From assembly GCA_964016885.1 (NCBI GenBank), contig OZ024742.1, forward strand, positions 311,922,001 to 311,986,000: DNA of 64,000 bases, written 5' to 3'. The notes under the pieces were generated by a model, which was not told the DNA's origin, did no database searches, and worked only from the letters and a program-made list of their open reading frames with translations. This stretch comes from Eledone cirrhosa. Lineage: Eukaryota. This document shows positions 7,562 through 34,211 of the stretch, piece by piece. The stretch's first letter is position 1. Each line of letters starts with the position of its first letter. A program made the position numbers and the translations under genes.

Positions 7562-9961
7562 TATATGATAAATAAAATCGTTTATTTATATATAATAATG
7601 ATTTCTAGTATAGGCACAAGGCCAGTAATTTTGGGGGGAGGGTAGAATCGATTAAACCGACCCCAGTACGTTATTGGTACTTTATTTTATCGACCCCGTA
7701 AGGATGAAAGGCAAAGTTAACCTCGACTGGATTTGAATGCAGACTGTAAAGAGCCGTAACTCTATGCTGCAAAGCATGGTCTCCAACTCTCTACCGATAC
7801 TGCTATTCCACCACCCTTTTATATATAATAAATAATACAACATATATTATGTATAAAGAAATATTATATATTTTTTATTTTACTTTATTTATATATAATA
7901 TGTAACATTTGATATTTAATATACTATTATATAATCTCTACCTCCCCAAAGTTGCCTTAGGCTCCAGCGCCTCCTTGGACCTCCTCAACGCACCCCAGGG
8001 ACGGTAGCGCCCACATTGAGAACCTCCGCCATAGTTTCTTAACTCCTGACGGAGTCGTAGGGGCAACCTTGTGATATATGGCGTGTCCTGATTAGCTTGG
8101 CCGAACTCATCCTTCTGCTTGTCTGAATACAGCCGAAAACTTCTTGAGAAAGAGAGCGATTAAAACAAAAAGAAAGTGAGAAAGATAAATAGAAAGAATA
8201 TCAACCTTAGAACTAGACGGATACTTTATTTATCGACCTCTAAAAGACGAAAGGCAAAGTTGAACTATGAGCGCTTAGTACTCAATACTTAAGAAAGTAG
8301 TGTGTAGGTATTCTAATAGTTTTCTGTCCTACATTAAGTCATCCACTGGTTAGTGAATATATGTAGGGACATTATAAATATAGTAGAGTTTATGAAAGGA
8401 AAATTACATGCCATAGCTATTTTTAGTCCAGAGGAAAAGTATAACACTTATTTTACGTTTGTCATCAAATTCTGTCGCAATAACTACACATTCATATATT
8501 AATGATACTTTATATTGCTTTCTGTAGGAATTTAACAATATTGGAAGAGTTTACAAAGCAGTGGAAGATCAGCTGGTACTAAAAGATAGAAGATGATCAT
8601 ATAATCTACCAACGATATAGACCAACGCATTTAGAAAGATATCCGCACTTGCAGGTATCTTATGTGTGTGTGTGTATATATATATATATATATATATATA
8701 TATATATATATATATATATATATATATATATATATATATATATATATAAAAGAAAATTCTACATGGCTGAATACAATAAATGAAATCTGAGTTTTTCGAA
8801 TATTAATAATAACATTCGATTCGTTTGCAATTATGCAAACAAGCGTCAATTTATAGCCATGTCAGTAGAATGAACACTTCATTCTTGCTCTTGTGTTCGC
8901 ATGTGAACAGAACTGTTCACATGCCAACAGGCTTGTTTGCATTGGCAGTATCAGTAGAGGGTCGGACGCCATGCTTTCCAGCATAGTTACGTCCCTTTAC
9001 GGTCTGAGGTCAAATCCCGCCGAGGTTGACTTTGCCTTTCATCCTTACAGGGTCGATAAAATAAAGTACCAGTAATGCACTGGGTAATTGCTGGCCTTGC
9101 GCCTAAAGTAGAAACAATTATTAATATTCGAAAAACTCAGATTACATTTATTATATATATATGTATATATATATATATATATATGTATGTGTGTGTGTGT
9201 GTGTGTGTGTGTGTGTGTGTGTGCAGATTTGATGAGATTTGTGTTGTGTTAACACTGATCTGAGGATCGGACAGTCTTGGAGTCTGGTCAAAGGGTGCCA
9301 TCCCAAATCACGAGCCAGTTGCTAGAAAAATTTGTAACCAGGATTGAGCAATAAATCTCCTATGTAACATCTCCAATTTGTTCTTATTATATATATTCCA
9401 GCATAGTTATGCCCCTTTACGGTCTGAGTTCAAATCCCGTCGAGGTTAACTTTGCCTTTCATCCTTACGGGGTCGATAAAATAAAGTACCAGTAATGCAC
9501 TGGGTAATTGCTGGCCTTGTGCCAAATGTAGAAACAATTATTTATGTATATATATATGCCAGGTGGTGCTATAAAGTAAGACATGGCCTGGGCCAATACT
9601 GAAACCTATGAAAGCTATCAAAGTTATATATACATATATATATATTTATATATATATATATATGTATAAAAACAAATAACGAAACGAAATTAAATTTCGT
9701 TTCGTTTGTAACTCACTTTTGTATGACTGACGCTTAAACAATTAAGTTAAAGATGTACATCCATATATGTATACTGAAATACTAGTATGTATATGAATAC
9801 ACACACGTATACATATGTAGATGTACCAAGTTTTTTCACTGGTCACTTTACTGTGAGTGGCCAGCTATTCTGTATGTAAACACACAGACAAACCGGTTTT
9901 TAGAGTCATACTGGTTTTTGAGGAAACACCTTTCCTCTATTCTCCAGAAAGCCAGACAAGG

Positions 9962-10006
9962 AATATTGAACTAGTTTCGTTGTTGTTACAACTCATCAGC
10001 AATATT
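9962..10006 (-). ncRNA. Minimal type I hammerhead ribozyme in the inverted arm of array 1
   Basis: Exact reverse complement of 10666-10710. Confidence 0.85.
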
Positions 10007-10665
10007 TACCTATCTTCCGGCCTCTCTAGAGAATCGTAAAAGCATATATCGTTATATGCTTTTTCTATGAAAATTAGTAGTGGGCAGACTAATTTGCATA
10101 GAGTGTGAGTAAGTACCGGTTCAACGGAGACGATAAAAACAAATAACGAAACGAAATTAAATTTCGTTTCGTTTGTAACTCACTTTTGTATGACTGACGC
10201 TTAAGCTGATGAGTTGTAACAACAACGAAACTAGTTCAATATTCCTTGTCTGGCTTTCTGGAGAATAGAGGAAAGGTGTTTCCTCAAAAACCAGTATGAC
10301 TCTAAAAACCGGTTTGTCTGTGTGTTTACATACAGAATAGCTGGCCACTCACAGTAAAGTGACCAGTGAAAAAACTTGGTACATCTACATATGTATACGT
10401 GTGTGTATTCATATACATACTAGTATTTCAGTATACATATATGGATGTACATCTTTAACTTAATTGTTTAAGCGTCAGTCATACAAAAGTGAGTTACAAA
10501 CGAAACGAAATTTAATTTCGTTTCGTTATTTGTTTTTATCGTCTCTGTTGAACCGGTACTTACTCACACTCTATGCAAATTAGTCTGCCCACTACTAATT
10601 TTCATAGAAAAAGCATATAACGATATGTGCTTTTACGATTCTCTAGAGAGGCCGGAAGATAGGTA

Positions 10666-32179: not shown

Positions 32180-32306
32180 ATATATATATATATATATATA
32201 TATATGTGTGTGTGTGTGTGTGTGTGTGTGTGTGTGTAATATATATATATATATATATATATATATATATATATATATATATATATATATATATATATAT
32301 ATATAT

Positions 32307-34211
32307 AATTAAGTTAAAAATGTACATCTACATATGCATACTGAAATACTAGTATGCATATGAATACACACACGTATACATATGTAGATGTAACAAGTCT
32401 TTCACTAGTTACTTTACTGTGAGTAACCCAGCTATTCTGTATGTAAACACACAGACAAACCGGTTTTCAGAGTCATACTGGTTTTCGAGGAAACACCTTT
32501 CCTCTATTCTCCAGAAAGCCAGACAAGGAATATTGAACTAGTTTCGTTGTTGTTACAACTCATCAACAATATTTACCTATCTACCGGCCTTTCTGGAGAA
32601 TCGTAAAAGCACATATCGTTATATGCTTTTTCTATGAAAATTAGTAGTGGGCAGACTAATTTGCATAGAGTGTGAGTACGCACCGGTTCAGCGGAGACGA
32701 TAAAAACAAATAACGAAACGAAATTAAATTTCGTTTCGTTTGTAACTCACTTTTGTATGACTGACGCTTAAACAATTAAGTTTAAAAAATGTACATCTAC
32801 ATATGCATACTGAAATACTAGTATGCATATGAATACACACACGTATACATATGTAGATGTAACAAGTCTTTCACTGGTTACTTTACTGTGAGTAACCCAG
32901 CTATTCTGTATGTAAACACACAGACAAACCGGTTTTTAGAGTCATACTGGTTTTCGAGGAAACACCTTTTCTCTATTCTCCAGAAAGCCAGACAAGGAAT
33001 ATTGAACTAGTTTCGTTGTTGTTACAACTCATCAGCAATATTTACCTATCTACCGGCCTTTCTGGAGAATCGTAAAAGCACATATCGTTATATGCTTTTT
33101 CAATGAAAATTAGTAGTGGGCAGACTAATTTGCATAGAGTGTGAGTACGTACCGGTTCAACGGAGACGATAAAAACAAATAACGAAACGAAATTAAATTG
33201 CTGATGAGTTGTAACAACAACGAAACTAGTTCAATATTCCTTGTCTGGCTTTCTGGAGAATAGAGGAAAGGTGTTTCCTCAAAAACCAGTATGACTCTAA
33301 AAACCAGTTTGTCTGTGTGTTTACATACAGAATAGCTGGATACTCACAGTAAAGTAACCAGTGAAAGACTTGGTACATCTACATATGTATACGTATGTGT
33401 ATTCATATGCATACTAGTATTTCAGTATGCATATGTAGATGTACATTTTTAACTTAATTGCTTAAGCGTCAGTCATACAAAAGTGAGTTACAAACGAAAC
33501 GAAATTTAATTTCGTTTCGTTATTTGTTTTTATCGTCTCCGTTGAACCGGTACGTACTCACACTCTATGCAAATTAGTCTGCCCACTACTAATTTTCATA
33601 GAAAAAGCATATAACGATATGTGCTTTTACGATTCTCCAGAAAGGCCGGTAGATAGGTAAATATTGCTGATGAGTTGTAACAACAACGAAACTAGTTCAA
33701 TATTCCTTGTCTGGCTTTCTGGAGAATAGAGGAAAGGTGTTTCCTCGAAAACCAGTATGACTCTAAAAACCGGTTTGTCTGTGTGTTTACATACAGAATA
33801 GCTGGGTTACTCACAGTAAAGTAACCAGTGAAAGACTTGTTACATCTACATATGTATACGTGTGTGTATTCATATGCATACTAGTATTTCAGTATGCATA
33901 TGTAGATGTACATTTTTAACTTAATTGTTTAAGCGTCAGTCATACAAAAGTGAGTTACAAACGAAACGAAATTTAATTTCGTTTCGTTATTTGTTTTTAT
34001 ATATATATATATATAAATATATATATATATATATATATATATATATATATATATATGTATATATATATATTTCGTTTCGTTATTTGTTTTTATCGTCTCC
34101 GTTGAACCGGTACGTACTCACACTCTATGCAAATTAGTCTGCCCACTACTAATTTTCATAGAAAAAGCATATAACGATATGTGCTTTTACGATTCTCCAG
34201 AAAGGCCGGTA
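32307..34211. mobile_element. Retrozyme-like array 2, diverged variant of the 467-bp unit: about 1.9 inverted units (32307-33199), about 1.7 direct units (33200-34000) and a 143-bp continuation (34069-34211)
   Basis: Homologous to array 1; intact HHRs at 32998-33042 (-) and 33660-33704 (+), 5'-truncated at 33201, mutated core (UUGAUGA) near 32529-32573. Confidence 0.9.

Follow-up and report, generated by a model that had tools for sequence, protein, structure and literature searches.

Two arrays of a 467-bp tandem unit, each unit with a predicted hammerhead ribozyme, lie in a 64,000-nucleotide stretch of the Eledone cirrhosa genome (GenBank assembly GCA_964016885.1, contig OZ024742.1, positions 311,922,001 to 311,986,000 of the forward strand; hereafter the window, whose coordinates are used throughout), and both were probably inserted in trans by a Penelope-type reverse transcriptase (RT)/endonuclease, in one event each. 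By its sequence features the unit is an animal retrozyme of the type without long terminal repeats (non-LTR), and it represents a new family. The enzyme, that of a Penelope-like element (PLE), is one that we infer from the ends of the arrays only: head-to-head arms, two fixed outer ends that bound a one-sided tail, and flanks of (TA)n.

The unit repeats head to tail with a period of 467 bp (5.6 copies) and has a GC content of 35%. Monomer positions are counted from the G before CTGATGA (G1; window position 10672), which places the predicted cut after position 32. One complete predicted type I hammerhead, at 10665..10710 on the plus strand, combines stem I (AATATTG/CAATATT), the core CTGATGA...GAAA and a 2-bp palindromic stem III, with the predicted cut after 10703. 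A pattern scan and sequence inspection place the predicted hammerhead in every full unit; where a direct arm begins, the 5′ strand of stem I is largely or wholly missing from the first unit, and one unit carries a C2T change in the core. Rfam gave no match for the hammerhead at its gathering score. The 2-bp palindromic stem III is the hammerhead form said to act as dimers (PMC4209133). No frame of at least 120 codons, stop to stop, lies inside the arrays, the monomer folds far more stably than its shuffles (z −11.4), and an exact 32-nt pattern gave 0 matches in metagenome contigs and 0 in viral contigs. Published animal non-LTR retrozyme units span 150–450 bp, with sizes up to 972 bp. As described for them by Cervera and de la Pena 2020 (PMC7229834) and Li et al. 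2026 (bioRxiv 10.64898/2026.07.22.740005), they share with the present unit the non-coding, AT-rich tandem organization, a type I hammerhead in every unit, a predicted fold with a high degree of self-pairing and co-occurrence with PLEs. What sets the present arrays apart is the combination of head-to-head arms, one-sided tail and (TA)n flanks; the word "inverted" occurs 0 times in the main text of PMC7229834, and the argument set out in the Li et al. preprint proceeds from co-occurrence and homology of pseudo-long terminal repeats (pLTRs), not from insertion ends.

Array 1 consists of an inverted arm at 9666..10204 on the minus strand (monomer 264→335, 539 nt, 1.15 units), with its outer end, B, at 9666, and a direct arm at 10205..12800 on the plus strand (monomer 1→261, 2596 nt, 5.56 units), which starts at G1 and has its outer end, A, at 12800. 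Array 2 has its inverted arm at 32307..33199 on the minus strand (monomer 305(308)→261, 893 nt, 1.9 units; outer end A at 32307) and its direct arm, the first unit of which is a distinct variant, at 33200..34000 on the plus strand (monomer 1→335, 801 nt, 1.7 units; outer end B at 34000). The head-to-head inverted, 5′-truncated arm is present in both arrays (2/2), and both use the same two outer ends, A at monomer 261 and B at monomer 335, 74 nt apart. An earlier reading of the window from its letters alone (the sequence-only reading) had described these two shared endpoints, 229 and 303 nt past the cut and on alternate arms, and the offsets prove exact; it had also put the start of both direct arms at the G before CTGATGA (10205 and 33200), which is equally borne out and places G1 32 nt upstream of the cut. 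Its statement that the arrays invert at one base holds for the G1 side, which is common, while the other side differs (264 in array 1, 305–308 in array 2). The swapping of endpoints between arms, which it also pointed out, is seen and carries little further information: any head-to-head insertion has two-fold symmetry, and one end short and the other long is what 14 of the 17 inverted pairs discussed below show.

All four outer ends of the two arrays adjoin (TA)n. The flanks lie at 9625..9665 and 12801..13490 to the left and right of array 1, and at 32178..32306 [(TA)n/(TG)n] and 34001..34068 to the left and right of array 2; the B end of array 1 has two extra bases (AC) ahead of the TA run. 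With (TA)n on both sides, a target-site duplication (in retrozymes, >4 bp when present) is unreadable. There is no poly(A) at the array ends, and both ends are internal to the monomer. The tail between them, shown for one unit at 10933..11006 on the plus strand between end A (10932) and end B (11006), contains a 13-bp hairpin at monomer 295–323. It is one-sided, 74 nt long and identically bounded in both arrays and in contigs of a sequencing run, X1, considered below. Annealing does not account for the choice of ends: homology to TA amounts to 1 nt at A and 3 nt at B, and nine monomer sites with 4–6 nt are unused, so the idea that the ends are chosen by best annealing to (TA)n was rejected.

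Arrays 1 and 2 are separate insertion events from different subfamilies. They differ from each other at 12–16 positions over monomer 1–261, against 0 differences within array 1 and 3–9 within array 2, and because of these 12–16 differences over 261 nt we treat the insertions as independent. The chance that array 2 would reuse both ends is ~1e-5 for uniformly distributed ends, or 4e-5 if the choice is restricted to the 214 TA-compatible ends. Support for the two outer ends also comes from outside the two arrays. Four of 24 listed runs were compared against one rotated monomer. In run X1, 1085 contigs aligned to the monomer, 58 of them partly, and the two best-supported loose ends among the six rows listed are TA-joined, one behind 11006, which is B (12 contigs with varied flanks), and one behind 10937 (four contigs). 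The window's own A junctions fall at 10937 under +1/−1 local alignment and at 10932 under stricter scoring; because placement depends on the scoring, the 10937 end is either site A or a site 5 nt off. The remaining four X1 rows among those listed, with 1–2 contigs each, resemble divergent monomer sequence.

The two-endpoint pattern corresponds, on our comparison, to a known PLE mechanism that the sequence-only reading re-derived. In vitro work on an anole PLE reports that RT starts at two internal sites, which delimit the tail, that both strands of the target undergo cleavage and extension, and that uncleaved or unprocessed RNA serves as the main substrate (PMC11167929). The reading had twin priming start on each strand of the target, at two internal sites that are fixed, with uncleaved RNA as template, and this much is supported; the circular template that it offered as the other option is disfavoured for array 2, if a single monomer circle is meant, by the two monomer variants in that array. 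As described by Frangieh et al. 2024 (PMC11167929), the Poseidon PLE of Anolis carolinensis shares with the arrays two fixed internal starts downstream of the hammerhead that bound the tail, an AT-rich target, priming on both strands and an uncleaved template. It differs in being autonomous with a tail of 30–40 nt, whereas the arrays have a coding-free multimer template, a 74-nt tail and both sites in each insertion. For PLEs, Craig et al. (PMC8557442) report insertion at (TA)n, an inverted arm and a tail of 30–40 bp at one of the two ends, and pLTR sequences are stated to be enough for mobilization in trans (PMC3846280). Our literature search found neither PLE-type ends on retrozyme arrays nor twin priming for PLEs; most subscription papers and supplements lay outside it, and supplements may show insertion ends. 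The present work adds retrozyme arrays that bear the full set of PLE insertion marks, have a tail of 74 nt and, in one arm, combine two monomer variants.

In the mechanism that we propose, the enzyme would cut both strands of a (TA)n tract, and the two DNA 3′ ends would serve as primers for reverse transcription, one at A (261) and the other at B (335), with multi-unit, uncleaved RNA as the template. The two complementary DNAs (cDNAs) would then be joined at their 3′ ends via 0–3 nt of microhomology, giving the head-to-head arms. One cDNA would end at G1, most likely the start of the template RNA. The other would end in the tail region (264 in array 1, 305–308 in array 2), where it was possibly blocked by protein or by the second primer.

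The form of the template is best read from array 2. Its first direct unit carries array-1 states at monomer 82, ~140 and 175 interleaved with array-2 states, and its other three units agree with one another. The template of array 2 would accordingly have held at least two variants, which disfavours a single monomer circle unless there was a template switch or later conversion. The units of array 1 are near-identical, with four private changes in ~3.1 kb, and are compatible with either template, multimer or circle. Because the template is a multimer, the variants among units would record the form of the RNA, linear multimer or circle.

The shared G1 start (2/2 arrays) has a chance of ~1.7%, reckoned post hoc, and in array 2 a 3-nt microhomology (ATT) at the junction leaves the start at G1 or at a position as much as 3 nt upstream. 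Of the causes considered, the template RNA's 5′ end comes out ahead at somewhat short of an even chance; coincidence or an inherited end is a less likely cause, and an RT stop at the ribozyme core, the cause given by the sequence-only reading, is slightly less likely again. That reading drew on the G1 start common to both arrays, and the stop is one candidate among several: the array arms read through the G1 site nine times against two stops, other families have their joints elsewhere around the ribozyme, and a transcript that begins at G1 would suit equally well. The other hammerhead-bearing junctions in the window fall at the core (16.2 kb), 10–15 nt upstream of it (35.0 kb), ~32, ~39 and 52–57 nt upstream (Hydra-type insertions i and iii and the repeat at 24.5 kb), close to the predicted cut (at 8.7 and 43.7 kb) or a long way from the ribozyme (Hydra-type insertion ii); these positions were read by eye and are biased, as short arms are recognizable only when they end near the ribozyme. 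In favour of G1 as a transcript start is an octamer motif, ATGCAAAT, at 11040..11047 on the plus strand, 99 nt upstream of the next G1, a candidate internal promoter element. An internal promoter of the small nuclear RNA type is cited for newt satellite 2 (PMC2220036). An RNA that starts at G1 is without stem I and would remain uncut there.

Several observations weigh against insertion by a PLE enzyme from uncleaved multi-unit RNA that begins at G1. The array tail is 74 nt long, compared with 30–40 nt reported for PLEs, and Frangieh et al. (PMC11167929) report no strand difference in the use of start sites, which does not on its own predict one A and one B end in each insertion. The variant unit of array 2 could stem from later gene conversion or from a template switch. 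A third monomer fragment, at 34069..34212 on the plus strand (monomer ~311→453) with TA on both sides, adds a third outer end at ~453; it carries the alleles of the array-2 subfamily and may be part of the insertion event of array 2. The unit has no sequence relationship to the neighbouring PLE, the best match being 14 nt. The similarity between the octamer region of the unit and that of the hammerhead-bearing repeat at 17.3 kb is marginal, with 10 of 500 and 5 of 300 shuffles reaching its score in a region picked after the motif had been seen. In the run comparison, the listed rows of X1, beyond which lie 35 more, include no loose end ahead of G1, X1 may be the window's own sample, and the raw run X21 gave 0 reads. 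The comparison also yielded no listed joint with a change of strand, whether at G1 or elsewhere; because both arrays have such a joint (2/2), we treat it as blind to junctions and as no test of G1.

The third fragment starts (~311) at the apex of the tail hairpin, near the inner end of array 2 (305–308). Runs X4 and X5, labelled as two other organisms, contain the monomer (window 10801–11267) near-unchanged at low depth. In X4, a 497-nt contig closes on itself with three differences, and there are no loose ends among the rows listed. In X5, a 34-nt segment of the tail (window 10953–10986, monomer 282–315) has raised depth, and to either side of it single contigs diverge, as though another element had the segment in common; the segment is a candidate protein-binding motif. 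Related species, horizontal transfer, circular RNA and contamination are indistinguishable as sources of the X4 and X5 copies.

L1 retrotransposons reportedly form inverted arms by twin priming, in a scheme ascribed to Ostertag and Kazazian in 2001, from two primers on opposite target strands, with the inner end adjoining the other priming site. Transferred to one linear retrozyme RNA, the downstream RT would be blocked by the second primer, and the inner end would abut the priming site of the other arm. This route is doubtful, although array 1 has the right geometry: its inner end at 264 lies 2 nt from A (261) and is joined to the 5′-most point, G1. In addition, both inner ends other than G1, together with the start of the third fragment, fall in the tail (chance 2.5% for the two and 0.4% for the three, post hoc). 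However, array 2 overruns B by 28–31 nt, adjacency is seen in 0 of 3 Hydra-type insertions, where offsets exceed 100 nt, and there is a ~6% chance that one of two arrays falls within 3 nt of A or B. The common ground with L1 is two opposite-strand primers and an inverted arm; the arrays differ in having no poly(A) tail, in that both priming sites are internal and fixed, and in the lack of adjacency in array 2 and the PLE copies.

The sequence-only reading itself, in which twin priming takes place on a circular monomer or uncleaved RNA that the RT follows round until it stops at the hammerhead core, we regard as unlikely. In its favour stand the G1 start of both direct arms, the very stable monomer fold and the element at 16.2 kb, one arm of which starts exactly at the core; the near-identity of the array 1 units is what a rolling circle predicts, and circular templates are a published proposal (Discussion of PMC7229834). 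The two monomer variants within one arm of array 2 would call for a multimer, for template switching or for subsequent conversion, and the nine passages through G1 and the scatter of the other hammerhead junctions, described above, count against a stop at the core.

Less probable still is self-priming fold-back, in which one arm would be copied from the cDNA of the other and the second outer end would be set by endonuclease resolution, as discussed for PLEs in PMC3846280 and, as a tail formed by resolution, in PMC8557442. Palindromic junctions do occur in several short insertions in the window (16.2 and 35.0 kb), and in array 1 the direct arm includes all of the inverted arm's sequence. However, there is no hairpin at either array junction, and fold-back is excluded for array 2 because neither of its arms contains the other: of the two, the inverted arm has the greater length, stops at 261 in its last unit and is without the variant unit. 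That the shared ends reflect a single event that was segmentally duplicated, or an assembly fold-back artefact, is hardly credible and was rejected: both A ends, past a microsatellite, do meet the same X end of a Hydra-type PLE, but the arrays differ at 12–16 of 261 sites and in junction partners and arm lengths, the flanking PLE arms are unequal in length, and B ends joined to TA are found in 12 contigs whose flanks vary. Priming at A and B by a PLE enzyme, on uncleaved multi-unit RNA, is the reading that we retain.

A potential source of such an enzyme lies close by. Three Hydra-type PLE insertions are situated between the arrays, all of them head to head: (i) at 13491..15225, 5′-truncated, with its ends X and Y 169 nt apart; (ii) at 18841..23603, with an open reading frame (ORF) split over two frames (19388–19924 and 19863–21896); and (iii) at 27363..32177, a partial tandem. 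X lies on one arm and Y, 169 nt further, on the other in 3/3, and all three are inserted in (TA)n and carry a hammerhead in the terminal repeat, with the variant core CCGAAGA. Within insertion iii, at 29040..31538 on the minus strand, an open frame of 832 codons would encode an RT with a C-terminal GIY-YIG endonuclease. It has the motifs RWR (RWK-like), DKT, CxCX5C, CxxC and CxH at residues 51, 136, 691, 789 and 817, matched against the description of the Hydra clade in PMC8557442, and its Atlas look-alikes (0.96–0.98) include GIY-YIG and RVT_1 clusters; Pfam and PDB searches with it gave no matches. An assignment to Naiad was rejected, as the endonuclease is C-terminal. The ORF is asparagine-rich between RT and endonuclease (20% N in residues 561–660), which recalls the N-rich inserts described in Adineta PLEs (PMC3846280). 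We classify it from its motifs as a Hydra-type PLE and a candidate partner of the arrays. The Hydra clade, as portrayed in PMC8557442 and PMC3846280, has in common with the arrays an inverted 5′-truncated arm, a tail at one end and a (TA)n target, and the neighbouring ORF has the Hydra motifs; the neighbouring element is ~4.2 kb with a 169-nt tail, compared with the general size of <3 kb stated for Hydra (PMC8557442). The unit showed no pLTR homology to the neighbouring family, the one autonomous PLE compared.

The architecture of the arrays extends to other insertions in the window. We counted 17 inverted pairs, namely the list entries that resemble single insertions and two Hydra-type pairs, leaving aside array-internal duplicates, monomer hairpins, inner parts of counted pairs, pairs of a dispersed repeat resembling short interspersed elements and four palindromes that are short or weak. 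In 14 of the 17, the three Hydra-type insertions included, one arm ends at a microsatellite and the other extends 27–169 nt more; one pair is symmetric and two are undecidable. Ends recur in the multi-copy, repeat-bearing families (the arrays, the Hydra-type insertions and, in part, the repeats at 8.7/17.3 kb and 24.5/27.3 kb), and in single-copy families the pairs show the asymmetry only.

Other elements in the window also carry hammerhead-like sequences. A head-to-head mini-element in (TA)n at 34850–35113 has hammerhead cores at +35029 and −35001, a palindromic junction 10–15 nt upstream of the core, a 71-nt tail and a long end, TTCTTTTAT, that resembles B. A hairpin mini-element at 16172–16359 has the hammerhead-like core CTGAGGA, at which one arm begins exactly, a 50-nt tail and its short end in a CT tract. 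A second hammerhead-bearing repeat, with a period of ~430 bp, is found at 17293–17760, 8750–9151 and 18658–18813; a 33-bp tandem upstream of its core holds octamer motifs, at distances of 70 and 136 nt from the core, and the repeat's upstream region has weak similarity to that of the 467-bp unit. The repeat content of the window is of animal type. Very long TA tracts lie beside insertions (12801–13490 and 34213–35763), and a number of elements unrelated to one another are nested together in them. At 61634–64000 there is another inverted insertion, PLE-like but of a different kind, which has a GIY-YIG-type frame at 62687–63238 and extends past the window. Young non-LTR retrotransposon copies ending in (ATT)n, and a long RT frame preceded by an endonuclease-like frame, are present at 1493–5108, 55324–56669 and 51462–55076.

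The mobilization of animal retrozymes by PLEs has so far rested on co-occurrence and repeat homology; arrays with the whole PLE signature give it direct anatomical support, with less surprise in the two-endpoint pattern, which is already explained in print. A wider proposal, which we advance tentatively and consider rather unlikely, is that PLE integration is obligatorily paired: a dimeric enzyme would prime one strand per tail boundary, so that each insertion uses both starts, and retrozymes would exploit this reaction not as monomer circles but as linear multimers, uncleaved and driven by an internal promoter of their own, with the first base of the ribozyme core as start. If true, the paired reaction would explain the head-to-head structure of PLEs and overturn the circular-template model for these retrozymes. 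With the high copy number of the unit, the open questions about PLEs, namely why insertions are head to head, why there is one tail and what role the ribozyme plays, become countable from one genome assembly.

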